A stretch of 59,728 nucleotides of DNA, filler included, from Globobulimina sp. (GCA_003354225.1; 13 parts of 13 records of this genome joined end to end with filler, not necessarily neighbours in it), one strand, 5' to 3'; shown: positions 971 to 59,728, counted from the whole stretch's first letter. The notes: a model not told the origin generated them from the letters alone. Numbers and translations are program-made.

Positions 971-3900
971 TTAAAAAATAGAATATCTTTTATTATGGAC
1001 CCCTTGGGATGAAACTTGTAGTGTCAATGGAGTTAAATGGTTGATGTCATTTGCGCCAATTAGTGGGATATCGGGTGATGTAGGGTTTGATCCGGGATTT
1101 GATGATATTGTCGCTCCGACGCGAAGATGATATCGATACCAGGCACCATCCAATTCCATTAATTGTTTTGTTTGCTCTTTTCTAAACTCTTTGGATGATT
1201 TATTCATTTCATTCATTATCTGTTCAAATCTTTTATCGTTTATTTCCTTTGAACCTGGATACAATCTCTCCGACGATGGGTCTTTACTCAATCCACACCA
1301 ATTTATACTTGCTTCATTTAGTTGATTCTCCTCCTCCTTATCCTCATCTTCATCTTCGTCATCATTATAAATGGATAAATCCAATGGTTTTTCATAAATC
1401 AGAGTTATATTTTGGGCATTTTCAAGTGCGCACTCAATATGCTTTGACAATGAATGATAGATCTCATTATATGCAGTAATGGGCACTTTGATGGTGTCGC
1501 ATTGTATCGGTTTCCTTATTAAATCCTTGGAAATCAATGGAAGTTTGGGTATAACATCTTTGTTTTTTGGATTTAGAATTCTTTTTGTTGACCGCTTATA
1601 ATTCACAGAATTAACAATATTTGAAGCAGCAGCCGATGATCCACCAATATTATATATTGAGCATAACGCAGATTGATACAATTCGTAACAGTGAAATTCT
1701 ACCTTTTTACTCGTATATGTTTGCTCAATATTTCTGAACAATGTCTGTAGATTCAAACAATTATCAATCAACACTTTAAAATTAGTAATACAATGAAAAT
1801 ATACGCAAATTGCTCGATCACTGCCTTCAATCAACTGCATTGTCAACTTATTTGTTAATTTATTGGTATTCAAAAATATATTCCGGCATCGTTGGACAAA
1901 TTTATATAAATTATCTTCTTTCATATTTATTGAATCTAAAAAGGCTAAAAAATTAAAATATGAATTTCCAATCTCTTCCAATGATGATATCGTGTTTTTG
2001 ATTTCTTTTTTAATTTTATGATTTTCTGTCTTCTCTTTTTCCATTTCATTCAATAATTTATCTCTTTCATATAAAATCTCTTGCTTTTCAGACACAATTT
2101 TATTATTCGCACAATTTAGTTTACTGATTTCAAATTGTAATGTTTTATTATCCATTCTATGATTTTCAATCTCATCCTTTAATTTTATTTTGGTTGCATT
2201 CAAAATCTCGCCCAATTCAAGCAACGTTTTCTCGGAATCTTCCATTTTTATTAATAATTTCTTATTGGTTTCCCGCAACATAATCAATCGTTTATCCTTT
2301 GCCGAATGCGATTTTTTGAATGAATCTTCTTCCGCAGCGAGATAACCTTTTAAGTGACGATCTCTTTTGTTTAATTTGGTGGATAATCTGTGTATTGATT
2401 GTAACTGTTCTTCTTTTTGTTTGTCTAAATGCCGAATACTTCGATTTTTACTCTGTAATAAATGCGAATGTTCACTAAATAAACTCTCTACATTTGACAC
2501 GGTTTGGTTTAATGCAACGATCTCTTTATTCAATGCATTTACTTTATTTTTTAATCGTTTATTCTTAATTTTTTCTTCTTTCCTGTCTTTAACTGCTGTT
2601 TGCAATTTCTTTTTGACGCTGGCGTACTGATCAATGCTCTCTGCACTTTCAATAAGAAGTGTTTCTAATTTTGATTTGATTTCAATATTAATATCTGTTA
2701 ATTGTTTCACCTCATTGTTTAAATCGAATATTTCATTCATTAATTCTTCATTAAACCGCAATTGTTTGTTATGCGCTTTATCCTTTTTCTTAAATGCCCC
2801 CTCTCTCTCTTTCTTATATTGTAAATATCGCTTATTCTCTGACTCCAACGTACAACATTCATCTTTCACTGAATTTAATTGTTTTAACATAACATTTATT
2901 TCATTTTCATGTTTTTGCCGCATATTAATTTCAGTTTTATGTAATTCCATTTCATGTTCTCGCGAGCTTTCTAACTCAAATTCTAATGTCTGTATTTTAT
3001 CCATATACACAGCACTCGTATCTTGTAAAGCATTTATGTTCTCCGTCAATGATTTTATTTCAATCTCTTTATTTGCACTCTCTTTCGCATGACTGGTACG
3101 CTGTGATTTTATTTCACAGTATTTATCCTTCCATACATTCAAATGATTCAATACATTCATAGATACACGTCTCTTTTTTTTAAGTTTCGGTTTTTGTTCC
3201 TTGATATTATAAACCTCATTGCCTGATTTTGCTGCAGATAATTTCAACTTTTTCATACCTTTATAATTATACTCATATTCATCAATGGGCAATATAATAT
3301 CATCATTGTTACACAATGTAGCTGGTTCTAATTCACTTATACTCATATTATATGATTTACTTTCTCGTTTTTTCAGATGTTGGTCATCGCAAAAAATGGT
3401 ACCACTGATAAACAATTCATTTTTGTCGTCGTCGTCGTCTTCCTCAATTAATTCTAACTGTGTATTATTCATTAACTGTTCAGCCGCCGTTTGTTTTTCA
3501 TATAAACTGAGCGATTCTTGCAACGCTTTGTTCTCTTCTTCGCTCTCTGCGATTTGACTGTGTGAGCTCTTCAATTCTCGTCGCAAAAAATTCAAAGCCA
3601 ATTCGTTTTTTTGTTTCTCTGACAAAGTGTCAAACTTTTCTTTTTTTAATTGTTGCGCCAATTCACTGATATCGCTGTGTAATGTATCAATTTCGTGCAT
3701 GTATTGATGCGTTGCTTTATCAGATTTTTGCAATTCGAGTTTTAAATCATTTTCCAACCGACATTTTTCTACGTTTAATAGGGAATATTTATTTTGTAAA
3801 GTTATCAAAACATTTTCAGTGTTTTCAATTTGCTCATATTTCTGATTGCCATCCAATTCGAATTTATTTTTCTCTTTTAAAATTTGTTGGAAACGTTTCT

Positions 3901-4096
3901 CTAAATTTTGTATTTCGGTTTCAAAGTTCTGTCTGGTTTCTGATAAAATGAGATCTGTTGCATGTTTATTTGTTTCCGATGTTTTAATTAATTGTAGGTA
4001 TTTTGCGTGCATTCGGTCATAATCTTCTTTCAATTCGTCATGTAATCTTTTACTGTTTTCCTCATTAGTTTGTGCTGTGATTATTTTATCCTCCAA
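971..4096 (-). CDS. Large coiled-coil protein, probable terminal exon (>1040 aa)
   Basis: 3.1-kb open frame rich in E/K/L heptads. It starts at TTG directly after a TAG acceptor (AG at 4098-4097), so an upstream exon is likely. Confidence 0.8.
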   Translation of the reverse strand: MEDKIITAQTNEENSKRLHDELKEDYDRMHAKYLQLIKTSETNKHATDLILSETRQNFETEIQNLEKRFQQILKEKNKFELDGNQKYEQIENTENVLITLQNKYSLLNVEKCRLENDLKLELQKSDKATHQYMHEIDTLHSDISELAQQLKKEKFDTLSEKQKNELALNFLRRELKSSHSQIAESEEENKALQESLSLYEKQTAAEQLMNNTQLELIEEDDDDDKNELFISGTIFCDDQHLKKRESKSYNMSISELEPATLCNNDDIILPIDEYEYNYKGMKKLKLSAAKSGNEVYNIKEQKPKLKKKRRVSMNVLNHLNVWKDKYCEIKSQRTSHAKESANKEIEIKSLTENINALQDTSAVYMDKIQTLEFELESSREHEMELHKTEINMRQKHENEINVMLKQLNSVKDECCTLESENKRYLQYKKEREGAFKKKDKAHNKQLRFNEELMNEIFDLNNEVKQLTDINIEIKSKLETLLIESAESIDQYASVKKKLQTAVKDRKEEKIKNKRLKNKVNALNKEIVALNQTVSNVESLFSEHSHLLQSKNRSIRHLDKQKEEQLQSIHRLSTKLNKRDRHLKGYLAAEEDSFKKSHSAKDKRLIMLRETNKKLLIKMEDSEKTLLELGEILNATKIKLKDEIENHRMDNKTLQFEISKLNCANNKIVSEKQEILYERDKLLNEMEKEKTENHKIKKEIKNTISSLEEIGNSYFNFLAFLDSINMKEDNLYKFVQRCRNIFLNTNKLTNKLTMQLIEGSDRAICVYFHCITNFKVLIDNCLNLQTLFRNIEQTYTSKKVEFHCYELYQSALCSIYNIGGSSAAASNIVNSVNYKRSTKRILNPKNKDVIPKLPLISKDLIRKPIQCDTIKVPITAYNEIYHSLSKHIECALENAQNITLIYEKPLDLSIYNDDEDEDEDKEEENQLNEASINWCGLSKDPSSERLYPGSKEINDKRFEQIMNEMNKSSKEFRKEQTKQLMELDGAWYRYHLRVGATISSNPGSNPTSPDIPLIGANDINHLTPLTLQVSSQGVHNKRYSIF

Positions 4097-4609: not shown

Positions 4610-5238
4610 CATAATAATTTTGTCGAATTTCATTTTCTCTTATCTTTATCGTATTAGTTGTAAAACGTTTTAAAGTCATTTTAATGGATTAAAAGTAGAT
4701 TTTCGTTGATCGGGTCGATATTACGAAATTCGAAGATTTGGCAGCTCACGGCCGAAACGGCTGACGATTTTGGTTATTTTATGATCCGTACATATCGTAC
4801 GCATAGTTTTAAAACGTTTTTAACTAGTTTTAGTGGATTAAAAGTCGATTTTCGGCGATCGGGTCGACATTCGGGAATTCGAAGATTTGGCAGCTCACTG
4901 CCGAATCTGGAAGTCATTTTGTTCTACTATATGTAGACTACTAACTCCCATCCAATTTTCAGCCCGATCAGCCCACTCAATAAAATTTTACAACAATTTC
5001 CGTAAATTTGGTCGTTTTCCAGACTTCCGGATACCGTATTCACGATTCCGAGGTCGGATCGGCTAACAAAAAAAAGTATCTCGAGCGTCGATGGTCTAGT
5101 ATCTGTGTTCAAAATTTCAGCCCGATCCGTGCATTAGAAAAAAAGTTATGGTCCCGGAGACAGAAAAAAAGAAAAAAAAAAGAAAAAAAACACGGGACAG
5201 CGGTGACGACTACAGTGGCCCCTTCGGGGTCACAAAAA
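4610..5238 (+). mobile_element. Non-autonomous Helentron/HINE-like interspersed repeat (3' part)
   Basis: Two ~100-bp imperfect repeats about 149 bp apart (~4657-4756, ~4806-4905), a repeated TTTCAGCCCGATC, an A-rich spacer, then a GC hairpin GTGGCCCC-TTC-GGGGTCAC (5215-5233) ending in an A run. Confidence 0.5.
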
Positions 5239-8200
5239 GAGGCTCTCGAAGGTGAACTTAGTGATACAGAAACAAGTCAAAAGAAAGTACAGTACTATTT
5301 AGGTAGCGTTATACCTAAAAATATCCCTGATAAAGATGTTTTGATGATGACAGCAGTAACGGATGCTAGGAATAGTCATACAAAACTAAAACATGAATGT
5401 AGAATAATATTGGACATCGGATCACAACGATGTTTCATTTTGAAGTCATTAAGTGAAAAGTTACAGTTGAAACCTATTAGACATGAAACGATTACGATAC
5501 AAAGTTTCAACAACAAAACTATACATGAATTACCGATAGTAGAGGTACAGATACAGTTGCAGGATAAAACATTTATAACGATCGAAGCGGATGTAAAGGA
5601 TGAAATAGCGGGTCCTATAAAGAAGGTCGCCATTGATCCATCCAAATATGATAATCTAAAAGATGTTACGTTAGCTGAGCCAATAATAAAAAGGTCACAG
5701 GACGTAAAAATTGACATTCTGATTGGCAGCGATTACTATGGTAAATTCGTTCCGTCGGAAAAATTAACAGACGATTTATATATGTTTCCCTCGAAACTGG
5801 GTTATCTCATATCGGGTACTATTGAATGTAAAAACGATAATAAAGCCGAAAAAATAATTCAACAAAATTTCGTGTCAACAAAGGTTATAGATACGGAAAA
5901 ATTTGAGCCAGATTTAGAAAATTTGTGGTTTGTCGCAGAGTCAGACACAGATACTGGTTTTACAAGAGACGATGAAATCGCACAAAAACACTTCGATGAT
6001 ACAGTAAAATTTAACGTAGATGAAAAGCGATATGAAGTTCAATATCCATATAAAGATAAAAGTAAAGAGTTAAATGATAATTATGAAGTCGCACATTTAC
6101 GTTTACGCTCATTACTTAAAAACTTGAAAAAACACCCTGGTATGTTAGAAAAATATGATCAAGTATTTAAAGAGCATCTAAAATTAGGAATTATCGAAGA
6201 AGTAACACCGGATATGGAAACCGGCGAAAGGACATATTATATTCCTCATCATTGCGTTATTAAACCTGACAGAGCAACGACAAAAATCAGAGTAGTTTAT
6301 GACGCATCAAGTAAACAAAAACCAGAGGATAGTAGTCTAAACGAGCTTTTATATCGAGGTCCAGTGGGACTCGAAGATATTGTCGGACTATGGTTACGAT
6401 TCCGTAAAGAAAACATAGGAATAGTCGCAGACATAGAAAAAGCATTTTTACAAATTCTCGTAGCACTAATGGATAGAGACGTAAACAGAATACTTTGGGT
6501 ACGAGATATAAACAAGCCGCTTACTGCTGACAATCTAATCATATACAGATTTGCAAGAGTCGGTTTTGGAGTAATATGCAGTCCGTTCCTATTGATGGCC
6601 ACAATAAGACATCATTTAAAACTTGTTGTCAGTAATAAAGACATTGCTGAAAAAATAGCTAAAAATTTATATGTCGATAACGTGATAGTAAGCGAACCGG
6701 ACTTAGAAAAAGCATTACAATTTTACAAAGCGTCCAAGGATATATTCGCACAGGCAGCAATGAATTTAAGAGAATGGAGTTCCAATTCACAAGAGTTTAT
6801 CGAAAACTTGCCCCAAAATGATAAAGCAAAGGGTGACATAATAAAGGTTTTGGGAATAAATTGGGACTTAAAGAACGATCTCATTTCATTAGTTGATCCA
6901 AAATTAAACGAGATAAAAGTAAAAACAAAAAGAAATTTGACGAAAGCAATCGCAAAGTTATTCGATCCATTAGGTTTATTTTGCCCCTACACCGCAGCTG
7001 GTAAATTATTATTGCAAACAGTATGGAAAAGCGGTTTAGACTGGGATGAAAATTTGCCGTCCGATATAAAAGAGCAATGGGAAAAGATAAAACATGTATT
7101 AAACATTGTACCTACAATAAAATTACCCAGAATAGTAGGGCCAATAAAATCAGAATATACGTTAGAATTACATTGCTTCACAGACGCATCAGAGAAAGCT
7201 TACGCAGCGGCCATTTATTTACGTATAATCAATGACGATAAAATAACTGTAAAATTAGTCTATGCCAAGAATAGATTAGCCCCCATTAAAAGAAAACAAA
7301 AACCAATTTCAATACCAAGGTTAGAGTTAATGGGTGTTGCATTAGGTGTAAAATGGGTACAGTTTGTCAAAGAACAACTACGTAGTCGTATTTCGCGCAT
7401 CATTGTATGGTCAGATTCAAAATGTGTATTAACTTGGATCAGCACTAAAAAGGTATTGCCCATATTCGAAACTAATCGCATTAAACAAATAAAAATGGCT
7501 GAAGGATTAGAATTTCGGTATGTACCAACAAAGGATAACCCCGCAGACATACCTACAAAACCACAGGAAAAATTTGACAAAAGTTTGTGGTGGGACGGTC
7601 CAAATTGGTTAAATAAAGTAGAATCTAAATGGGCATGTGAAAAGATACAGGATGCGGAAATTAGTACAGTATTAGTGACATTAACTGATCATATCAAAGC
7701 ACCATTAGATATAAATATTGAAGATTTTTCGTCATTAAATCGGTTAATAAAAGCTACTGCAAGAGCGCATAGATTTTGTTTTAATATAAAAAGTCGATTG
7801 CCAGCGTACGAACAGAACCAAGTACCTACATATTTACAACATATATATTGGGCAAAACGAGCTTGGGAAATGTATACGCAAGACCAAGAATACGCACATA
7901 TAAAGAAGTCAATAAGTAAAAATGAAAAAGGTGCATTCATTAGAGACTTGGGTTTGTACATGGATAAAAATGGTCTAATTAGATGTAAAGGTAGATTAGA
8001 AAATACGAATTTACCAGAAGACACAAAATATCCTAAATTGTTACCAAGACATAGCTATTTTACAAAATTAGTCATAGAGAGATGCCACACGCGTTTAATG
8101 CACTCTGGGGACAAACAAACATTAGCGCAGTTACGGCACGAGTACTGGATACCGCAAGGAAGAGCACAAGTACATGCAGTAATAAAAAATTGTAAAGAAT

Positions 8201-9117
8201 GCAAAAGGTTTTGGTGTGGAACATTCCAACCACCCGCGGCGCCTCCTTGGCCAACGTTTAGAGTGAATCCCAGTCAACCATTTGAATATATCGGTATAGA
8301 TTACTGGGGACCAATCGAAATAAAAAGTTACAAACAAAACGAAAAGATATGGGTTTGTCTATTCACATGCGCTTCTACGAGAGCCATACATTTAGAAGTC
8401 GTTACCGATATGACAAAAAACGAATTTATCGATGCTTTAAAACGGTTTATAGCGCGTAGAGGTCGGCCAAAAATAATTATATCTGACAACGCAAAACATT
8501 TTAAAGCAGCAAATAAATCATTAGAAATCCTTTGGAAATCAGTAAAAGATTATACAAACACCGAAGGTATTGAATGGAAATTTATAATAGAGTTAGCACC
8601 CTGGATGGGAGGGTTTTATGAAAGACTAATCGGTACTATAAAACGGAGTATTCAGAAAACTGTAGGATGTAAACTCTTGACATTGGCGCAGTTTCAGACC
8701 CTTGTAACTCAAGTAGAGGCTGTCGTAAATACACGCCCGTTAACTACAGTAGACAGTAAAGACGTAAATGATTTTTGTCTGACCCCTGCACATTTGCTTT
8801 TTACAAACCCTCAATTAGGTTTGCCTAATGCGGAACTTGAATTAGATCCAGAATATAAATTAAAACCAGATAATTCAGACAAAATAATAAAGTTTTGGTA
8901 CAGTGGCCAAAAGGCAATAAAGTATTTTTGGAAAGTTTGGAAAAACGATTATTTATTGAGTCTGCGAGAACAAAATTGGAACAAAATAATACGAGGTGCA
9001 AGCACTGATAAACCAAAAGTAGGTACAATCGTATTAATAAAAGAAAGCACGCCTAGGGCACAATGGACAATGGCAAAAATTGAAGAATTAATCAGTAAAG
9101 ATGGGCTATGTCGAGCC
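5239..9117 (+). mobile_element. pol: BEL/Pao LTR retrotransposon pol polyprotein (protease, RT, RNase H, zinc finger, integrase); gag and LTRs not in contig
   Basis: ILDIGSQ protease; YYIPHH..V, RVVYDAS, ADIEKAFLQI and NLYVDN (RT); FTDASEKAYAA..Y..K.RLAP..SIPRLEL (RNase H); H..H..C..C; GIDYWGP, SDNAKHF and APWMGGFYERL (integrase); FW..W...YL..LRE tail. The frame is uninterrupted to the contig end. Confidence 0.96.
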
Positions 9118-50636: not shown

Positions 50637-52231
50637 GCCGAACCAATGGCAAATCCCTTGCCGGTCGCCGCCGTGGTATTACCCAAAGCATCTAAACCAT
50701 CCGTGGTGTCTCGCACATATTTGTCTAATTCGGCCATCTCTGCGATGCCACCGGCATTGTCTGCCACGGGCCCAAATGCGTCCGTCGCTAAAGTCACTCC
50801 CAAAGTGGACAACATACCGACTGCCGCTATCGCGATGCCATAATCGCCGCTTAATTCGTAACAGCCCAACACGGCGATGCAGATCACAAACATCGGTGCG
50901 ATGGTCGACAACATTCCGACACTTAAACCTTGGATTATGACTCCGGCCGAACCAATTCGTGATTTTTTCGCTATGGATATGGTTGGTTTGTATGCGAACG
51001 AAGTCGCATATTCGGTACAAATGCCAATGGTTTCGCCGGCAATTAAGCCGATTGTGATGCAGCCCAACACATAGTAACACGTCGAGGAGTCGAAGGAGAA
51101 GAATAAGCCGCAAGAGACATACGAGAGGCCCCACGACAAGACGGTGGCCGTGGTGATGCCGCGTCGGATGGTATGCAATAAGGTATTTTGTAGGTCTTCG
51201 TGTTGCTGGGCGGCGGCTTCTAATAACACTTTTTTGTCGCTGTCCTGCTTCGCCTCTTGGTTTGGGCCATGTTTGTCGCTGCTTGTACGCACCATAAATA
51301 TGCCAATAATACCGGCGAAAATGCCAAACCCTGCGATCCAAAACGGTAAAGCAACAAAATGGTCGCGATCTAATGAGTATCGCTCGTCATCGGCGGTATC
51401 CTCGCCGACATCGGTAACGACCCGAAAAGTGGAGACCGCAGCCTCGGATAATTGGATGGTGGCAATAATGGAACCCACGAAAGACTCAAACAAATCGGCC
51501 CCCATTCCAGCTACATCGCCGACGTTATCACCAACATTATCCGCGATGGTGGCTGGATTCTTGGGCGAATCCTCAGGTATATCGGCTTCCACTTTGCCCA
51601 CTAAATCTGCCCCGACGTCCGCCGCTTTTGTATAAATACCACCACCGACGCGCGCAAACAATGCAATCGCAGAGGCTCCAAAGCCAAAGCCAGCCATATA
51701 AGAGGTATCGCGTTGCGTATTGCCGCCGATTATCACATATATCACAATTAAACCTAATAATCCTAAACATACCACAGAGAGACCCATCACTCCACCACTC
51801 CCAAACGCGACGGATAAGGCTGCGTTCAAACTGGTCTTCGCCCCGTTGGCTGCTCTCACATTGGCTTCCACCGCAATTAACATACCGGCATACCCACAAA
51901 AAGCAGACAATGCTGCGCCAAACAAAAACGAGACTCCCGTTTCGAGCCATTTTGCAGTGATACCGCCAATGATGACATACATCAAAATTACAAAGATAAA
52001 TAAATAAATATACTCTCTGTGTAAAAAGGCTTTTGCGCCTTCTTTTATTGAGTCAGCAATTGCTACCATTTTGGGAGACCCTTTTTCTTTTTTCAAAACA
52101 CGAAATATTGCTAAATACACTATAACAAATAAGCCAACTACGGATCCTGCCAAAGCTGGTGCTATTTTCATTAATGTCTCATCCATATTCCCAATTTGAC
52201 CCACTTCTTCGCCTTGCGCACGGCTTGACAT
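50637..52231 (-). CDS. Membrane H+-translocating pyrophosphatase, K+-dependent type, 3'-truncated
   Basis: [52 protein letters not shown] and GNTTAA (Ala indicates K+-dependent). Confidence 0.97.
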
Positions 52232-53970: not shown

Positions 53971-55133
53971 ATGAGTGCCAACCAGTTTGCAGAAAGTATT
54001 TCTACACATTTACCAAATACAAATATTAAAAGTAAATTAAAATTATTATATGAGAGAATATTGGATCGCATTAAACTTAATAAAAATAACAATAAAAACA
54101 AACATAAAAAAAGAACGTACAATACAATGACTGGAGATATAAATATGGATAGTGACTCCTATACTAAAAAACCAAAAATAATTAGTAAATTAACTAAACA
54201 ACAGAGATATAACCTCACACTTAAAGGTAAAGCTCGGAAAAAAAAATATGCCGCCACCAAAAAGGGTAAAGAAACCCAAAAAAAATATGTGAAAACAAAA
54301 AAGGGCAAAAAAAAAACTAAAGAAACCAAAAAAACATATGTCGCCTCCAAAAAGGGTAAAGAAACTAAAAAACAATATGCCGCCTCCAAAAAGGGTAAAG
54401 AAACCAAAAAAAAATATGCAGCCACCACACAAGGTAAAAAAACCCAAAAAAAATATGTCAAAACAAAAAATGGTAAAAAAAAAACTAAAGAAACTAAAAA
54501 AAAATATGCTGCTTCAGACAGAGGAAAAGAAACAAAAACAAAATATGCAAATAATAATAAAAAAAAACAATTGCCAGATTATTTTGTAAACGATGAGTGG
54601 CAATTATATAAAAAATACCAAAAAACTCTAAAACATGAATTTGATGCTGATGATTTAATTAATTTGAGCATACAAGAAATAAAAAACATATTTCGATTAA
54701 GAACAACTGGTGTAGTTGCAAATGAGTCTGCGTTACAAATAAAACGGTCAATAGTTGAAGAAATTATTAAGTATATCAAAGCTAAACATGAACCAGAATT
54801 ATTTGAACGAGCACAATCACACATGACTCATTTTTTTGATGATTTTGAATCAACAATCATTTTGTTCAAAATTTTGAATTTAAAATTAATAGATTGCTGG
54901 AGATTAACACAGTCTACATCTGTCAAAATACTTGGTAAAACTATATTTAATATAATTAAAGAAGATAAGGAAGAAAAGAAAGTCAATGGTGATATTAATC
55001 ATATTGAAAAACGATTCGAAACATCAGAATTGCTTAATTTATCGATACAAGAACTCCGCGAATTATTTAACATTTCGTTGCAAAAAGCTAGAAAATTAGT
55101 TAAAGAAATTCCAAAAGATAATTCAATCAAAGC
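53971..55133 (+). CDS. Protein with Lys-rich 13/17-aa tandem repeats (KKYAATKKGKETQ), partial
   Basis: About 8 repeats of 39/51 bp at ~54240-54550, and a duplicated (D/E)L(I/L)NLSIQE motif. Confidence 0.65.
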
Positions 55134-55376
55134 NNNNNNNNNNNNNNNNNNNNNNNNNNNNNNNNNNNNNNNNNNNNTTAATTAATTAANNNNNNNNNNN
55201 NNNNNNNNNNNNNNNNNNNNNNNNNNNNNNNNNTATTAAAATATATATGTTATGTTAATTTTTATTCAGTTTAATTGGTTATTAATAGTATTAGTTGATT
55301 TTTATTCAATTTACTATATTTAAAAATAAGTCCATTATATATTCTTGTTTTTAAAAAATTAAATATATTTAAATGA

Positions 55377-58097
55377 TTATTGTTTTAAACGTTCAATTAA
55401 TTCTGCTTTTTTCCCAGAAACTTTTAATCCTCTCTTTTTACATTCTTTTTTTAATTCACTTACTTTTGTTTTACTTGTAATTATAAATTGTTCAACTAAT
55501 TCAGTTACTTCTTCAGATGATTGTTCTTCTTCTGTTAATTCTTCTCCAATTTCTTCAACTTGTTCTTGTTCAGTTGTTTCTACTATTTGTTGGTCTTGTT
55601 GTTCAATAGTATATGATTGTGTAATTATTTCTTTAAGTAAATGATTAATTTCTTGAACCTCTGTTAAAATATCATTTTTTCTTTTTTCTAATACATTTAA
55701 ATAACTTACGACCCTATTAATATTTTTATCATCTACGAATAATATATCAATTTGTTTAAGATTTGTTTTTGATATAACTTTTTGTCCTGCTCCATGATAA
55801 TATCTCTGTAAAATATTTTTATTAAACTTTAAGAAATAATATATGTATTTTGTTTTAATATTATCTTCAGTTTTTATGGCAAAAGCATTATCTGTTAAAT
55901 ATATTTTTTCAGTATTATAAATAATATGAATATCTCCTACTCTTGTTAGAATAATATTATCTCCTTCCTTATTATAAGTATTATGTTTTCCCATAACTTT
56001 TCCACCACCAATAACATTATAATCACCTTGTATCATTCTTTTTTTTGGTAAACATTTTCCAGAATCAATTGTAGTGATATCATCTAGTTTTATTAATGTA
56101 TTATTATTTTTCTTTAATTCTTTTCTTAAATAATATTCCATTTGATTTTCAATACCATTATATCTATTAAGTAAAAAATTAGTTTGGTCTGTTAGATCAT
56201 TCCCAGAAAATATAATTTCTTCTTTAATATAATTTGTAGGATTTGGTATTGATATATTAATTAATCTTTCTTTTGTAATTGATTTTCTACCTGAACCAAT
56301 CATTATTTTTTCTAAAACATCAATGTTGTTTTTTAAATAATAATAAATATATTGTGTAGTCAAGTCGTCCTTTGCTTTAAAATGAAAAACAGATGAACCA
56401 ACTCCATATTTTTCTTTTGTTAAATATATATTAACCTTACCTGAACCATTAATAGCATTAATAACAAGAGCAACACCTTGGAAATCTTTTTTCTCATTCC
56501 AATCTTTCATATATATGTTTTTTTTATAACTACAAAAATATAAAGGATAATTTCCAGTTTCTAAACCATCTCTTTTAGAATTTCTTGTTCCTATTTTTAA
56601 AAATGTTACTAAATCTCCAAGTTTTTTTAATTCACAAGTTGAATTATCTTGTAATTTTTTATATGTTTCATCAATTAAATAATCAACTGGATTCCAAGAA
56701 TAATTATTTTTTTCTAAATCATCAATTGATACATTACATATTTCAATAATTTTTGAACCATCATCATTAATTTCTAAAAATTGTATATTTTCTGTTTGTT
56801 TTCCTTCCTTTTTAATGAAATATATTGCTACTGTTTCAACACCTGTATGTGTAAAAGAACCAGAAGGAATTTTTAAAATCTTTTTAATAATACAATTCTC
56901 ACAAAAATATTTTCTATAATCTTTATAATTTTTACTAGATGTTTCTTCACCGTCTTTTATAATTAATACTCCTATTTTTTTCGTTTTATATAATACTAAT
57001 TGTGATGATAAAACAGCATCATTTTTTCTACTATTATGAGGTATAATTTTTTCAATATTAGGTAAATTTGGTTGAACTTGTTGTAATTTTTCATATGAAC
57101 TCTTAATCATTTCAAAATTCATTGAAGAACCAAAAGGAACATTATGAGTTGAAATATCTAAATGTGGAGAAATAAATTTTTCAAATGAAGTTCCTTGAAT
57201 AATATTATCAAATTTATCAATTGATAACATAGCATTTAAATAAGCATAATGATATGTTTTTTCATTATATTCAACACCATACATATTTTTACCTTGTATT
57301 TTAATATTAAATTTATCTTCTAAAAATTTTTTAGCATGTAATGGATAACCAAATGTTCCACAAAATTCATCTCCCAATGTAGAATTATCATTAATGTCTA
57401 AATCAATTAAATCTTGTTTATCAATTAATTCAAAAGTCATTCTCATAACAGGTCTTTCTGTAAAGAATTGTCCCATATCTTTACCTCCACCACCACTATA
57501 ATTATTAATAAAATGTTCATATGTATAACCAATTAAATCAGATAAATTTGTATTATTCATAAGACCAATTTTATTATTTTTAATTCTATTAAACATTTTA
57601 GAAATAACCAATCCATTCTTACAAATTAAGAAATTTTTATTTCTAAAAATATTTTTTGTAATTGGATGAATACATAATAAAGCACCAGCTTTATTAATAG
57701 CATCTTCACCTTCAAATGTTCTTAATTCATGTGTTTGTCCAATTAAATAACTAATTTTTAAATATTTTATTAAATAATCAAAATGTTCTAAATCATCTTC
57801 ATCATTTATATTATCAATACCTTCAATGCGACCTACATAATATTTTATATTTTCTAAATCAAAAAGCCCTTTTGTTGATATTTTATCTTCAATAAAACAT
57901 AAAGCAAATGTTTTTATTATATCATTAAGTGCTTCATTCCCAGTTACACCTGAACCTCTTAATAGATTATGTATTGAAGTAAGTAAATTTACTAATTCTT
58001 CTTTGAATTGTTGCTCTGTTGTTAATTCTTTTTCTTCTTCTTCGCTTAACGAAAAGATAATTTTATTACTTCTTGTTTTTTTGGTAAAATTAGACAT
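55377..58097 (-). CDS. Type I-like N6-adenine DNA methyltransferase fused to two HsdS-like target-recognition domains and a C-terminal SAP domain
   Basis: MTase motifs GQFFT, DEFCGTFG (I), YGVE, NVPF (IV) and FTHTGVET. TRD1 runs KLGDLV..YPLY..GSGRKSITK and TRD2 runs KLDDI..GKCL..GAGQKVISK. An acidic linker leads to VSELKKECKKRGLKVSGKKAELIERL (SAP). Confidence 0.9.
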   Translation of the reverse strand: MSNFTKKTRSNKIIFSLSEEEEKELTTEQQFKEELVNLLTSIHNLLRGSGVTGNEALNDIIKTFALCFIEDKISTKGLFDLENIKYYVGRIEGIDNINDEDDLEHFDYLIKYLKISYLIGQTHELRTFEGEDAINKAGALLCIHPITKNIFRNKNFLICKNGLVISKMFNRIKNNKIGLMNNTNLSDLIGYTYEHFINNYSGGGGKDMGQFFTERPVMRMTFELIDKQDLIDLDINDNSTLGDEFCGTFGYPLHAKKFLEDKFNIKIQGKNMYGVEYNEKTYHYAYLNAMLSIDKFDNIIQGTSFEKFISPHLDISTHNVPFGSSMNFEMIKSSYEKLQQVQPNLPNIEKIIPHNSRKNDAVLSSQLVLYKTKKIGVLIIKDGEETSSKNYKDYRKYFCENCIIKKILKIPSGSFTHTGVETVAIYFIKKEGKQTENIQFLEINDDGSKIIEICNVSIDDLEKNNYSWNPVDYLIDETYKKLQDNSTCELKKLGDLVTFLKIGTRNSKRDGLETGNYPLYFCSYKKNIYMKDWNEKKDFQGVALVINAINGSGKVNIYLTKEKYGVGSSVFHFKAKDDLTTQYIYYYLKNNIDVLEKIMIGSGRKSITKERLINISIPNPTNYIKEEIIFSGNDLTDQTNFLLNRYNGIENQMEYYLRKELKKNNNTLIKLDDITTIDSGKCLPKKRMIQGDYNVIGGGKVMGKHNTYNKEGDNIILTRVGDIHIIYNTEKIYLTDNAFAIKTEDNIKTKYIYYFLKFNKNILQRYYHGAGQKVISKTNLKQIDILFVDDKNINRVVSYLNVLEKRKNDILTEVQEINHLLKEIITQSYTIEQQDQQIVETTEQEQVEEIGEELTEEEQSSEEVTELVEQFIITSKTKVSELKKECKKRGLKVSGKKAELIERLKQ

Positions 58098-58125
58098 ATT
58101 AAGTGTTTTATTATATATTATACAA

Positions 58126-58133
58126 TCAATTTT
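58126..58133 (-). promoter_or_regulatory. AAAATTGA Mimiviridae-type early promoter motif
   Basis: TCAATTTT on the + strand, about 30 nt upstream of the MTase ATG (58097). Confidence 0.7.
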
Positions 58134-58233
58134 ATTTTATTTTATAGTAGTATAAGTAATGAGTTTATAATGGATTAAATATATAGTTATGATAAGTTTT
58201 GGATAATTATATGGATTATATATAATATATAAA

Positions 58234-58241
58234 TCAATTTT
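58234..58241 (-). promoter_or_regulatory. Second AAAATTGA motif
   Basis: TCAATTTT on the + strand in the same 215-bp intergenic gap, in the same orientation. Confidence 0.55.
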
Positions 58242-58312
58242 AACAACAAAAAAAACATTTTTTAAATTAAGTCCATTATAAAACTTTATTTTTAAAAAAA
58301 ATAAATATTGTT

Positions 58313-59728
58313 TTAAACATTATTTTTATAAAATCTATGAAATGGATATTGTGGTATTTTATTATCAAGTTTATTATAATATTTATTTTTATTCATTTTG
58401 ATTTTTATGTTATTCTTTTTTATTATTTTTTTTGAAATTATACCATTTAATTTATCTTGCTCATATTTTATATTAATTTCTTTAATTATATTATTACATT
58501 CTTCTTCTGTTTTATAATATAATTTTTGGAATGGATCTACGACTTCTTGCCAATGAAAGTTTTTAAAATCATAAATATTTTCTCTAAATCCTTGTTCTGG
58601 ATTATTCTCTTTGAAAATATTGTATTCTATTTCATTATATATTTTATATTTTCTTAATATTCCTATTAATTTCTTTTTCTTAATAAAACTTTTTCTATCA
58701 CCACCTCTTAAAAATTGAGTTGTTAATGCTTCTACTAAACTACTAGACATTTCAATATCATCACTATAATCTATATTATCACTACCAATACCACAACTAA
58801 TTCCACTATTTTTAAAATCTAAATATTCAATGATATCTTCTTCTACTTCTTGAACTACATATGTTAAATATGCTACAATATGGTCGTATTTTGATTCACC
58901 TACTTCTATAAATTCTGGTAATAATATAACTAATTCTTTATTAAGATTTCTACCATTTTCTCCTTTTTTATCTGGTCTCAATCCTCTACCTACACATTGT
59001 CTAATATCTATTTGTTGAGTTTTTGGGTCTGTAAATGTTATAAAATCTATTTTAGGATTATCATAACCATAAGATATTTTTTTACAAACAATAATAATTG
59101 AATTATCTTCATCATCTTCAAACTCTTTAATTGTTTCATCATTTAAAAAATAATTATAAGGACAAATATTATTTAACAATTCTATTTTGTTATTAATTCT
59201 AATTTCTTCTTGTTCTATTTCTTGTAATTTTCTATTATATTCAATATTTGTTATTTCTTCACTTTCTAATTGTGATCTTAAGGTTCTTTTTTGTTGTCCA
59301 TAAGACATATTACCAATAAATAAATAAGGTTTGATCTTATTATTTACATTACCTAAATGTTTATCTAACATCATACTAAACATATTTAAACATCTTTTTT
59401 GATTTCTATGAAACGATATACCTTTTTTACGATTTGTTTTATTAAATGTATCATATACTAATCCGAGTAAAGAACTATCTTGATTATCTACTGGTTTAAT
59501 ATATGTTTTAATAGGGCATAAGTATCTTTCGGTAATTAAGTATTTAATATTAACTAATTTAATATGTTCTCCAAAATATTCTGGATTTTCAATCATTTTA
59601 TCTTGTGGTGTTGCTGTTACAAATAATTTTTTAATATTTTTATTATTACCTAACCAATATTTTAAATGGTCTTTATTCTCTTTTGTTTCATCGTTTAATT
59701 GTTTTAACCAACAACAAGTTTCATGTGC
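58313..59728 (-). CDS. Superfamily 2 (DEAH, restriction-enzyme Res-like) helicase, 5'-truncated
   Basis: The frame is open to the window edge and begins ...AH (end of motif II). KKLFVTATP (III), SFH (IV), CKKISYGYDNP.IDFI.F.DPK (V) and QCVGRGLR (VI) follow. Confidence 0.88.
   Translation of the reverse strand, partial: AHETCCWLKQLNDETKENKDHLKYWLGNNKNIKKLFVTATPQDKMIENPEYFGEHIKLVNIKYLITERYLCPIKTYIKPVDNQDSSLLGLVYDTFNKTNRKKGISFHRNQKRCLNMFSMMLDKHLGNVNNKIKPYLFIGNMSYGQQKRTLRSQLESEEITNIEYNRKLQEIEQEEIRINNKIELLNNICPYNYFLNDETIKEFEDDEDNSIIIVCKKISYGYDNPKIDFITFTDPKTQQIDIRQCVGRGLRPDKKGENGRNLNKELVILLPEFIEVGESKYDHIVAYLTYVVQEVEEDIIEYLDFKNSGISCGIGSDNIDYSDDIEMSSSLVEALTTQFLRGGDRKSFIKKKKLIGILRKYKIYNEIEYNIFKENNPEQGFRENIYDFKNFHWQEVVDPFQKLYYKTEEECNNIIKEINIKYEQDKLNGIISKKIIKKNNIKIKMNKNKYYNKLDNKIPQYPFHRFYKNNV

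Follow-up and report, generated by a model that had tools for sequence, protein, structure and literature searches.

Gene content of the terminal contig

The analysed window (59,728 nt in full) consists of 13 contigs of ~4.5 kb joined by 44N-TTAATTAATTAA-44N linkers, and is not one stretch of a genome. The genes described here occupy the last of these contigs, with the following features.

55234..59728, no strand: last of the 13 joined contigs, a separate 4495-bp contig of 21.3% GC (N-run map, per-segment GC, linker sequence)
55234..55319, no strand: 3' flank, a high-depth repeat at the contig end, 97.7% identical to positions 3830-3915 of locus L008
55377..58097, minus: M-S-SAP gene, 906 aa (ORF; Pfam; PADLOC)
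57543..58097, minus: N-terminal conserved region, residues 1-185, ahead of the catalytic domain, without the C2H2 finger head typical of relatives
56751..57542, minus: N6-adenine MTase catalytic domain, residues 186-449, motif I GDEFCGTFG, motif IV NVPF (Pfam; alignment; PDB profiles)
56208..56642, minus: TRD1, about residues 486-630 (Pfam; PADLOC; PDB type I S subunits)
55656..56096, minus: TRD2, residues 668-814 (Pfam; similar to TRD1 of the otherwise distant protein P0277)
55467..55610, minus: acidic Glu/Gln-rich linker, residues 830-877, common to P0277 (read from the sequence)
55380..55466, minus: SAP domain, residues 878-906 (PF02037)
58126..58133, minus: AAAATTGA early-promoter motif, 36 nt upstream of the M-S start codon
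58234..58241, minus: second AAAATTGA motif, 144 nt upstream of the M-S start
58313..59728, minus: R-like SF2 helicase/translocase, C-terminal 471 aa, 5'-open (ORF; Helicase_C; alignment to relatives)
58976..59143, minus: Helicase_C (RecA2) segment with motif VI QxxGRGxR (invariant Q244, G247, R248, G249, R251)
58316..58861, minus: family-specific helicase C-terminal domain, ~residues 290-471, proposed M-S adaptor (conserved Y369, Y405, P459, Y467)

The first-pass annotation had described an HsdM-like module and a two-TRD HsdS-like module fused in one 906-aa chain, which lacks an evident nuclease and ends in a SAP domain after an acidic linker. Each part of this description was borne out. The methylase matched N6_Mtase (PF02384, residues 186-449, E 1.4e-24) and, in a PDB profile search, the type I M subunits 2okc, 3khk and 5ybb. 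Methylase_S (PF01420) matched in two stretches (E 9.2e-21, the best at 668-814), and the PADLOC type I specificity models (Specificity_I) covered residues 486-810 and 486-629, which means that both TRDs are present. The best PDB matches of this reader were type I S subunits (1yf2, E 1.2e-32; EcoR124 S 7bst, E 9.6e-29). SAP scored 44.6 bits (E 1e-11; cutoff 23.9), and Pfam, NCBIfam and PADLOC models detected no nuclease family in the chain. Both GDEFCGTFG and NVPF were invariant in a 28-sequence alignment. Motif IV is canonically NPPF/Y; the invariance of the variant in the close family argues that it serves some function, although not which one.

The M-S-SAP architecture is not an artefact of the window's assembler, since record 4 (3610 nt) of X1, an independent assembly of the run that is the likely source, covered 55323-58932 with 0 differences and contained the entire ORF plus its junction with the helicase gene. 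Record 8 of X1 continued ~460 nt past 59728. One run contained two variants, at depths of about 13x and 4.5x, as expected of two virus strains, and an unrelated metagenome run, X2, yielded pieces that are nearly identical, differing at 1 position over 151 nt and at 1 over 203 nt. The draft assembly is of eukaryote type, and other contigs in it carried a BEL/Pao retrotransposon, a transketolase and an H+-PPase.

The octamer AAAATTGA is the early-promoter motif of Mimiviridae (PMC5294985). Both copies on the contig, at -36 and -144, lie in the 150 nt that precede the M-S start codon, the placement that marks a Mimiviridae-type early gene. The motif occurred at -28 to -43 in 7/7 M-S genes checked and upstream of three of five helicase genes, against a background of 0.0065 per 20-nt window.

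The helicase partner and its full-length relatives

An SF2 Res-like helicase had been proposed upstream on the same strand, and the 471-aa fragment did align to full-length ResIII helicases (30–36% identity). Its own Helicase_C match was weak (E 6.4e-5, residues 196-251), and the alignment showed that motifs III and VI are kept. The fragment starts with 'AH', opening inside motif II (DE|AH), where it is cut by the contig end; alignment to relatives of 650-790 aa placed about 290-335 aa upstream of it. The N-terminus is thus missing, as first noted, but because the window is made of joined separate contigs, to lie outside it means to lie past a contig end.

We collected 195 cluster representatives of the helicase (E<=1e-30), mostly 650-790 aa long. 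ResIII was found in 66/66 of those scanned with Pfam, and T5orf172 and/or MUG113 in 16 of the 66, with the domain assigned by alignment in the others. The full-length partners begin with a T5orf172/GIY-YIG-type nuclease domain with conserved Y, KxG, R and E residues. In a 61-sequence partner alignment, G22, R30 and E83 of this domain were invariant and Y6 and K20 at least 90% conserved; in the motor, T178, G181 and K182 of Walker A were invariant (G179 at least 90%), as were D274, E275 and H277 of the DEAH motif. Partner residues 1-118 found T5orf172 clusters of Nucleocytoviricota as their structural match in the ESM Atlas. The contig's own helicase begins downstream of the nuclease domain, Walker A and the larger part of motif II, which fall past the contig end, and the GIY-YIG-type head is known from the relatives. 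The prediction of a nuclease at the missing N-terminus therefore stood for the full-length relatives, whereas the PD-(D/E)xK or Mrr head that had been expected there was rejected, because T5orf172/MUG113 occupies its place.

The partner motor was closest to Type ISP enzymes in PDB profiles (LlaGI 5ffj, E 1.6e-16; LlaBIII 4xqk, E 3.4e-16), in an alignment that takes in both RecA lobes and the stretch past motif VI; HsdR 3h1t matched at E 1.6e-9. Neither PADLOC nor NCBIfam models recognised the partner as a restriction subunit or HsdR.

Linkage and proposed exchange of modules

We found 266 M-S homologues of ~900 aa, including two proteins of Cafeteria roenbergensis virus (CroV) and proteins on GVMAG contigs. 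The relatives are Mimiviridae-like giant viruses, both CroV copies included, and pattern scans of prokaryotes (one genome per species, 185,579 species) found no relatives of either protein. Of 17 distinct, informative M-S-anchored loci, 16 had the helicase adjoining the M-S gene, and an M-S gene adjoined the helicase in 9/11 helicase-anchored loci, both CroV pairs among them. Linkage of helicase and MTase in related genomes thus held up. There was no partner at M-S-anchored locus L003/L011 (709 nt of flank) or at helicase-anchored locus L034. Adjacency persisted down to about 22–28% M-S protein identity. On the contig the genes lie 215 bp apart, with promoter motifs of their own, and their co-directional order recurs in L008, L037 and L038; across loci the pair occurs in both orders and orientations, mostly convergent. 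In CroV, the MTase parts of the paralogues share 80% identity, each being the other's closest among 120, and the helicases, at 58% identity, are likewise each other's closest, indicating that the pair was duplicated as a unit and that the TRDs then diverged.

Both ORFs are intact, with dN/dS of 0.19–0.6 against the sister allele L008 (helicase core 0.19, MTase core 0.23). In this comparison, a single allele pair on which the recombination mosaic rests, dS jumped from 0.19 to about 0.55–0.63 at helicase residue ~330, and dN jumped too. In partial Mantel tests, which are liberal for related sequences, the helicase C-terminus correlated with the M-S N-region (r = 0.42, p = 0.0002) and with the MTase core (r = 0.49, p = 0.0004), but not significantly with the TRDs (r = 0.02). 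The helicase C-terminal domain and M-S may have been swapped together between co-occurring strains. The sister allele P0001 has a single TRD.

The SAP tail was absent from all of the 120 closest homologues, most of which have an N-terminal C2H2 finger. SAP-like Rho_N modules stood at the N-terminus in 12 of 54 scanned relatives; a DNA-tethering appendage is thus a habit of the family, and not unique to M-S-SAP. The body of the distant M-S protein P0277 shares 23% identity with M-S-SAP, against 59% for the tail (65% by the search), and its TRD1 is 50% identical to TRD2 of M-S-SAP. Two otherwise distant proteins thus have this tail and a specificity domain in common, which marks both parts as shuffled modules, and TRDs and tail may in general be exchangeable. 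The acidic linker and SAP domain would form a non-specific anchor for AT-rich DNA, which in this lineage may stand in for the N-terminal C2H2 finger (sometimes with Rho_N) of most relatives. We found no SAP-tailed R-M enzyme in the literature, in line with the first-pass annotation, which knew of no characterised one; the M-S fusion itself was already annotated in CroV, and similar ChlorV genes have been published (PMC13196603).

Interpretation and comparison with known systems

We concluded that the contig probably derives from a Mimiviridae-like (Imitervirales-type) giant virus and carries a conserved, early-expressed two-gene cassette, and that this cassette works like a type I ('Type IMS'-like) R-M system, a reading to which we assign a probability of roughly 0.6 and in which the restriction activity is inferred. 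The R-M-like interpretation offered at first pass was supported when tested on linkage, nuclease and prior characterisation. In the proposed mechanism, M-S would use its two TRDs to recognise a bipartite target and would methylate adenine in the viral genome, while the helicase-nuclease would dock on the methylase part via its family-specific C-terminal domain. On unmodified host, virophage or rival-virus DNA, ATP-driven translocation would be followed by cutting by the GIY-YIG domain.

The cassette might instead be a methylation machine that does not restrict, which we consider unlikely, though likelier than the other alternatives. That is, the translocase would aid M-S scanning or access to packaged or protein-coated viral DNA, or couple methylation to replication, repair or packaging, with the GIY-YIG-type domain acting in repair or recombination. 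Most giant-virus MTases studied are orphans (PMC7253447), the partner was unmatched by restriction-subunit models, DNA-anchoring heads and tails would fit a processive modifier, and PMC7824862 proposes T5orf172 in phages for recombination or as a Holliday-junction-resolvase-like enzyme. However, the nearest solved relatives of the motor are restriction enzymes, and the nuclease domain keeps its catalytic-type residues throughout the family. The TRDs also diversify and shuffle between strains and paralogues, like those of conflict systems, and similar genes are present in a strain-specific manner (PMC13196603).

Less probable still is a selfish, addictive mobile module, in which the GIY-YIG helicase cuts genomes without the cognate methylase and the pair spreads by recombination between co-infecting viruses, with little benefit to the virus. 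GIY-YIG domains are common in homing endonucleases, giant viruses included (PMC5871332), and such a module would suit the duplication in CroV, the variable gene order and orientation, and the two alleles whose flanks are identical while the interior is divergent. Yet this describes a mode of spread and not another mechanism, for the same restriction chemistry is required, and the pair has been kept under purifying selection over the very deep divergence noted above, which suggests lasting utility. A decaying endogenous viral insertion in a eukaryote genome, or a SAP tail that is an assembly chimera, with nothing functional in either case, is very improbable: the draft assembly is of eukaryote type, the contig is only 4.5 kb and no RNA holder is listed, but the ORFs are intact and constrained, the whole ORF recurs without differences in X1, P0277 has the same tail, the two depth variants fit virus strains, near-identical pieces occur in X2, and the early-promoter motif is in place.

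Within the restriction-modification reading, we suggest tentatively that the cassette could be a strain-level self/non-self weapon. It would be an ATP-driven bacterial-type system rebuilt for the eukaryotic cell, with a GIY-YIG head replacing the nuclease, interchangeable DNA or chromatin anchors (C2H2 finger, Rho_N, SAP, Lys-rich tail) by which it is guided to the AT-rich DNA of the viral factory or to that of the host, and a specificity unit (helicase adaptor, methylase, TRDs) exchanged as a block between co-circulating strains. If so, co-infection by rival strains or virophages would be decided by the cassette allele that each carries.

Classical type I R-M systems (EcoKI, EcoR124I; HsdR2-HsdM2-HsdS1) have in common with the cassette a gamma-class HsdM-type N6-adenine methylase, a two-TRD HsdS-type reader (by Pfam, PADLOC and the 1yf2 and 7bst matches) and an SF2 motor that is a subunit of its own and bears a nuclease at its N-terminus, as in the full-length partners. 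Differences were also evident. The cassette's M and S share one 906-aa ORF, likewise in the ~900-aa relatives, and are not separate subunits, so that there is one methylase per two TRDs versus an M2S1 core. HsdR joins a PD-(D/E)xK nuclease to the motor, whereas the motor here has T5orf172/MUG113 (GIY-YIG-type) N-terminal domains in its relatives. Also unlike classical type I are the NVPF variant of motif IV, the added DNA-binding appendages (SAP here; C2H2 or Rho_N in relatives), the eukaryotic-virus carrier, the separate early promoters and the mostly convergent genes that form no operon.

The Type ISP enzymes LlaGI and LlaBIII (5ffj, 4xqk), the best solved-structure match of the partner motor, follow the same nuclease-motor-methylase-TRD logic, but as a single chain with one TRD, unlike the two genes and two TRDs found here. 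Their nuclease is of the Mrr type. The cassette methylase resembles type I HsdM more than it does its ISP counterpart, with no ISP chain among its PDB matches listed. Type IIB R-M-S enzymes (AloI, CjeI type) place a methylase and then two TRDs in one chain, with the nuclease at the N-terminus of that same chain and no motor; the M-S-SAP chain has no nuclease family match, and its motor-nuclease is encoded next door.

Type IMS, named by Roberts et al. 2012, denotes the combination of a separate R with an M-S fusion that has one or two TRDs (PMC3510504). The cassette has a two-TRD fusion and a tightly linked gene for a putative motor-nuclease, although family models do not identify the partner as an HsdR homologue. 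In the EcoKI system, an engineered M-S fusion was able to restrict together with a separate HsdR, and required extra free HsdM in vitro (PMC3510504).

The literature yielded no biochemical characterisation of the M-S/helicase pair, and no description of the pair or of a helicase-nuclease partner of giant-virus M-S fusions. The CroV M-S proteins P0090 and P0120 are family members (38–41% identity) annotated as 'putative type I restriction modification enzyme, M and S domains', and the CroV helicase partners are annotated as 'hypothetical protein crov384' and 'putative superfamily II helicase'. A ChlorV gene with a 6mA MTase domain and one TRD is linked to bipartite CANNNNNNTG methylation, and a second carries two TRDs (PMC13196603); these are likened to the cassette M-S by domain description. 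None of the CroV and ChlorV fusions has a C-terminal SAP. Amoeba-infecting Mimiviridae were found unmethylated (PMC7253447), which would count against the R-M reading if they carry the cassette. The 638-aa 7eew ('Type I restriction-modification system methyltransferase subunit') joins methylase and TRD in one chain and resembles the sister allele P0001. Unlike M-S-SAP, it has a single TRD and no SAP or zinc-finger appendage, and it matched the TRD1 region of the family profile with E 4.8e-12.

The M-S-SAP protein and its viral contig

The window consists of 13 contigs, running from 4509 down to 4495 bp and joined by 44N-TTAATTAATTAA-44N linkers. A feature "outside the window" therefore lies past a contig end, and no feature is to be read across a linker. 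The two genes studied here are on the last contig (55234–59728, 4495 bp, 21.3% GC). The remaining twelve contigs (31–43% GC) carry eukaryote-type genes, including a BEL/Pao retrotransposon, a KDZ-type CxC4 cluster, a transketolase and an H+-pyrophosphatase.

55377–58097, minus strand: M-S-SAP open reading frame, 906 aa
58313–59728, minus strand: helicase fragment, open at its 5' end, 471 aa, with a weak Pfam match to Helicase_C
5008–9117, plus strand: near-complete BEL/Pao-type LTR retrotransposon polyprotein (Peptidase_A17, E 1.3e-50; integrase zinc-binding; rve; DUF5641), by which the assembly would derive mainly from an animal-type eukaryote

An independent assembly of sequencing run X1, from which the contig likely stems, reproduced positions 55323–58932 with 0 differences, and a second contig of that run extends ~460 nt past 59728. 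We concluded that the finding of an M-S-SAP gene beside a helicase gene is real. At the 3' contig end (55234–55383), summed depth in run X1 was 278 versus ~13 over the genes, with many variant contigs, which points to an AT-rich repeat as the probable cause of the assembly break. Composition also shifts abruptly within the contig at 50637–55133, where an H+-pyrophosphatase fragment (~46% GC, PF03030 E 1.3e-156) gives way to AT-rich sequence. The latter holds a 386-aa Lys-rich ORF (53971–55130) with repeated 'KKGKETKKKY'-like units and without a Pfam match.

Pfam searches of the 906-aa chain (hereafter M-S) placed N6_Mtase at residues 186–449 (E 1.4e-24), Methylase_S in two stretches (E 9.2e-21) and SAP at residues 878–906 (PF02037, E 1e-11, 44.6 bits against a cutoff of 23.9), the last behind a Glu/Gln-rich linker at residues 830–877. 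PADLOC models of type I specificity subunits spanned residues 486–810. No nuclease family was detected in the chain by Pfam, NCBIfam or PADLOC, and NCBIfam gave no match for either M-S or the helicase fragment. In profile comparisons with the PDB, the reader part matched type I S subunits (1yf2, E 1.2e-32; EcoR124 S, 7bst, E 9.6e-29) and the catalytic part matched type I M subunits; also among the matches was 7eew, a solved M-S fusion with a single target recognition domain (TRD). These results confirmed the first-pass annotation, which had described a fusion of HsdM-like and two-TRD HsdS-like modules with no evident nuclease, ending in SAP behind an acidic linker, with an SF2 helicase upstream on the same strand. 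An 'EDK' stretch in the M-S N-region was considered as a PD-(D/E)xK motif and dropped, as it fell outside the columns conserved in at least 90% of sequences and resembles the HsdM N-terminal helix.

Homologues of M-S numbered 266 at E<=1e-3, mostly ~900 aa long and metagenomic. Two belong to Cafeteria roenbergensis virus (CroV), where they are annotated as 'putative type I restriction modification enzyme, M and S domains' and 'putative DNA N6-adenine methyltransferase'. Scanning viral contigs with the single 906-aa sequence gave no match; an alignment-based scan placed related loci in the CroV genome and on contigs of giant-virus MAGs. Neither M-S nor its helicase partner had a relative among 185,579 prokaryotic species, each represented by one genome, in pattern scans whose limited sensitivity may miss distant ones. 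The Mimiviridae early-promoter motif AAAATTGA (PMC5294985) occurs 36 and 144 nt upstream of the window M-S start. It was present at −28 to −43 in 7/7 M-S genes examined and upstream of 3/5 helicase genes, the two helicase genes without it being the CroV copies; its background rate in these loci was 0.0065 per 20-nt window. Judged by its homologues, the related loci and the placement of AAAATTGA, the contig is that of a Mimiviridae-like giant virus, and its M-S gene bears the hallmark of an early gene.

The helicase partner and its linkage to M-S

Loci anchored on M-S numbered 30, of which 28 were distinct (L011 repeats L003, and L014 repeats L004). The helicase adjoined M-S in 16 of the 28. 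In 15 of these it lay directly downstream on the opposite strand, with stop codons that often overlapped or abutted (the gap in L019 was ~1 kb); L008, the sister allele locus, alone had the helicase upstream on the same strand, as in the window. Twelve loci had no helicase match, and 11 of them are uninformative for the downstream side because their contigs stop inside M-S or less than 100 nt past its end. No helicase match was found in the 709 nt downstream of M-S in L003/L011.

The reverse test used 11 helicase-anchored loci not counted before (L033–L042, L045), and an M-S gene adjoined the helicase in nine: seven convergent and two co-directional (L037, L038). Locus L034 had no M-S gene within 5 kb of sequence, and L042 had none adjacent, on a flank of only ~0.6 kb. 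In several of these loci M-S was only 22–28% identical to that of the window and carried a canonical NPPFG motif IV. The pairing is kept with M-S proteins this distant, and is therefore older than the close family. The two CroV pairs are mutually closest (methylase parts 80% and helicases 58% identical, with differing TRDs), a pattern that we read as duplication of the cassette as a unit followed by divergence of specificity. We concluded that M-S/helicase adjacency is near-obligate across deep divergence, and the proposed linkage of the two genes in relatives was thus borne out from both sides.

The helicase fragment starts inside motif II (DE|AH) and, by alignment to relatives, retains motifs III and VI but misses ~290–335 residues. 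A word-based homologue search with the fragment gave only 3 weak matches; an exhaustive profile search gave 1645 proteins at E<=1e-3. Cluster representatives at E<=1e-30 numbered 195, most of them 650–790 aa long and matched end to end. ResIII was found in 66/66 full-length partners scanned, and T5orf172 and/or MUG113 at the N-terminus in 16 of these 66 and also in both CroV copies. In an alignment of 61 partners, numbered by the CroV partner crov384, the N-terminal residues G22, R30 and E83 were invariant, with Y6 and K20 at least 90% conserved. The Walker A residues T178, G181 and K182 were invariant (G179 at least 90% conserved), as were D274, E275 and H277 of the DEAH box. The Y...KxG...R...E spacing agrees with the catalytic layout of GIY-YIG nucleases (I-TevI).

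T5orf172 has been termed a Uri (GIY-YIG) endonuclease family (PMC7824862), and it is listed among the uncharacterised NCLDV gene groups of varied architectures (PMC3493329). The ESM Atlas model of crov384 residues 1–118 matched T5orf172 clusters structurally (TM 0.60–0.64 by query). Several Nucleocytoviricota clusters in the Atlas share the T5orf172-ResIII-Helicase_C build, and one bacterial cluster has T5orf172 fused to an EcoRI-type methylase, offering a lead that T5orf172 may serve restriction-modification (R-M) systems. The first-pass annotation had pointed to the helicase N-terminus as the place for a nuclease, of the PD-(D/E)xK or Mrr type. The relatives support the position, through T5orf172/MUG113, but the predicted type is GIY-YIG.

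The partner's motor was closest in PDB profile comparisons to the Type ISP enzymes LlaGI (5ffj, E 1.6e-16) and LlaBIII (4xqk, E 3.4e-16), with both RecA lobes and the stretch after motif VI aligned. The next matches were RadD (E 1.5e-10) and then the type I HsdR 3h1t (E 1.6e-9). PADLOC restriction-subunit models did not match the partner; PbeA matches were weak for L002 and L004 and stronger for the distant member P0215. The CroV partners are annotated as 'hypothetical protein crov384' and 'putative superfamily II helicase'.

Co-variation, alleles and exchange of modules

Pairwise identities were compared over 17 loci in which both genes are complete (136 pairs; L025, whose M-S is truncated, was left out). 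Identity in the helicase C-terminal domain tracked that in the M-S N-region (Spearman 0.76) and MTase core (0.77), and the helicase core tracked both less closely (0.59 and 0.68). In partial Mantel tests (5000 permutations, liberal for related sequences), the C-terminal domain was associated with the N-region when both cores were controlled (r = 0.42, p = 0.0002), and with the MTase core when only the helicase core was controlled (r = 0.49, p = 0.0004). The coefficients were 0.02 for the C-terminal domain against the TRDs, −0.28 for the helicase core against the N-region, and 0.03 for the nuclease domain against the N-region. These values are suggestive of a helicase C-terminal domain that docks on the methylase, in a comparison where fast-evolving regions can correlate trivially. 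Over the same number of loci, the nuclease-type N-terminal domain (helicase residues 1–185, L004 numbering) gave a Spearman coefficient of 0.07 with its own helicase core; this reflects either independent exchange of the domain or a divergence (mean identity 23%) too great for a reliable alignment.

The sister allele locus L008 (4175 bp, 21.4% GC) and the reverse-complemented window contig start at exactly the same base and do not differ over their first 100 nt. Identity in the helicase core was mostly 93–97% (two 100-nt stretches at 83–86%). It was 56–69% in the helicase C-terminal domain and 50–91% in the methylase, and the TRDs were unrelated; at the other end, an 86-nt stretch was 97.7% identical. 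The M-S of this locus, P0001, has 714 aa and one TRD, and ends in a Gln/Glu linker and a Lys-rich tail. Depth in run X1 was 12.7–14.8 for the window form and 4.4–4.7 for a second form with many differences, which fits co-occurring strains better than equal-copy paralogues. Two co-occurring strains also explain why both contigs break at the same base. Run X2, from an unrelated metagenome, held short near-identical pieces (1 difference in 151 nt and 1 in 203 nt). Downstream of the P0001 gene, at L008 3939–4175 (plus strand), an ORF with a Cys/His-rich, zinc-finger/RING-like start runs off the contig.

Between window and L008, dN/dS was 0.19 for helicase residues 1–330 and 0.60 for residues 330–471; for M-S it was 0.53 for residues 1–185, 0.23 for residues 186–480 and 0.53 for TRD1, the last saturated. 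At about helicase residue 330, dS rose from 0.19 to 0.55–0.63. These ratios indicate that both genes are under purifying selection, and the divergence pattern argues that the helicase C-terminal domain has been inherited together with the M-S gene rather than with the motor of its own protein.

Nearly all of the 120 closest M-S homologues listed end at the residue aligned to window residue 829/830, and therefore have no C-terminal tail; they carry 70–90 extra N-terminal residues instead. The pattern C-x2-4-C-x8-14-H-x3-6-H occurred in the first 130 residues of 78 of these 120 (61 with strict spacing), with weak Pfam matches to zf-C2H2. Among the other 42, some began with a Lys-rich 'MPPKRESKK' head, a degenerate finger or a SAP-like head, and some had no head. 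Among 54 homologues scanned with Pfam, picked for unusual-looking heads or tails rather than at random, 12 had an N-terminal, SAP-like Rho_N (three above the curated cutoff) and none had PF02037 SAP. The window M-S has no head, because the 215 nt upstream are full of stops; it bears the C-terminal linker-SAP tail instead. A hidden zinc-finger exon upstream of its start was ruled out by the stops that fill 58098–58330.

A search with the tail only (residues 826–906) found one further M-S protein, P0277 (930 aa), whose body shares only 23% identity with the window M-S and whose motif IV reads NPPFG. The tails of the two proteins share 59% identity (65% in the search listing); in Pfam, the P0277 tail matches SAP (E 3e-4) and Rho_N (E 3e-3), neither score reaching the cutoff. 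TRD1 of P0277 shares 50% identity with the window TRD2, and TRD2 of P0277 shares 36% with the one TRD of P0001. No relatives of P0277 were found in viral contigs. The same search returned P0276 and P0278, UvrD-type helicases of ~650 aa with a C-terminal SAP: P0276 has three SAP stretches in Pfam, the best segment being 61% identical to part of the window tail, and P0278 carries PF02037 in precomputed Pfam results. Similar SAP units thus circulate in the gene pool, and these helicases are possible donors of the tail. From the P0277 matches and the SAP-bearing helicases, we infer that the SAP tail is a real, rare and shuffled module, as the TRDs are. The window version represents a rare lineage: SAP anchors the C-terminus, both genes run in the same direction, and two alleles occur together. 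What it adds is this SAP-tailed variant. It also shows that the TRDs, the tails and the C-terminal domain of the helicase can be swapped like modules.

A putative motor-driven restriction-modification system

The earlier interpretation of the pair as an R-M-like system held up in silico. We put the probability that M-S and the helicase form one functional module at roughly 0.85; that this module restricts unmodified DNA as proposed below is somewhat favoured. By its sequence, the cassette would be a giant-virus R-M system of type I or 'Type IMS' character, driven by a motor and equipped with a putative GIY-YIG-type restriction subunit.

In the proposed mechanism, M-S would read a bipartite target with its two TRDs and methylate adenines there, and the partner would bind M-S through its own C-terminal domain. 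The partner would then translocate on DNA with unmethylated targets and cut with its GIY-YIG-type head. The SAP tail may boost non-specific affinity for AT-rich DNA, its likely counterparts being the C2H2 or Rho_N heads of relatives and the Lys-rich tail of the sister allele. Likely prey would be DNA of the host, a virophage or a rival virus; the authors of the ChlorV giant-virus study weigh the same options for their own methylases (PMC13196603).

That study linked nanopore 6mA at CANNNNNNTG in ChlorV-1 and ChlorV-3 to a gene that combines a 6mA MTase domain with a single TRD, reported a second gene with two TRDs in ChlorV-3, and placed the methylase genes in strain-specific loci; the passages considered make no mention of a helicase partner (PMC13196603). 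In a giant-virus methylome study, all predicted targets are type II, amoeba-infecting Mimiviridae are unmethylated, and CroV is discussed only as a prospect (PMC7253447). The AaV methylases have all been treated as type II (PMC12700378), and BsV is said to have 'partial restriction modification systems' (PMC5871332). 'Type IMS' has been proposed as a name for systems in which an M-S fusion carrying one or two TRDs works with a separate HsdR (PMC3510504). In literature drawn mostly from outside subscription journals, we found no description of the M-S/helicase pair or of a SAP-bearing R-M enzyme.

R-M in eukaryotic viruses has so far been known mainly as type II, from chloroviruses and marseilleviruses. 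If the pair restricts, a type I-like system that runs on a motor and uses a different nuclease would be widespread among Mimiviridae-like viruses of both marine and freshwater habitats, as judged by the 195 partner clusters (E<=1e-30) and 266 M-S homologues. Such a system would open to molecular study the DNA conflicts that viruses in protists have with one another, with virophages and with their hosts, would explain strain-specific bipartite 6mA motifs, and would offer a new R-subunit design for restriction enzymes, with a GIY-YIG head on a Type ISP-like motor. Because CroV is culturable and has two cassettes, the idea is directly testable.

One methylase per two TRDs poses a stoichiometry problem. 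An engineered EcoKI M-S fusion restricted in vivo but depended on extra HsdM in vitro (PMC3510504). The balance may be supplied by a dimer or by an M-only protein. Locus L022 contains an extra methylase-domain gene (4638–5441, minus strand), head to head with its M-S gene, that shares 30% identity with window M-S residues 206–477 and 31% with the P0277 body; free M subunit may come from this gene. Likewise P0116, a 598-aa protein on a 16.4-kb contig with a methylase domain and no TRD in precomputed Pfam results, may be a natural M-only form.
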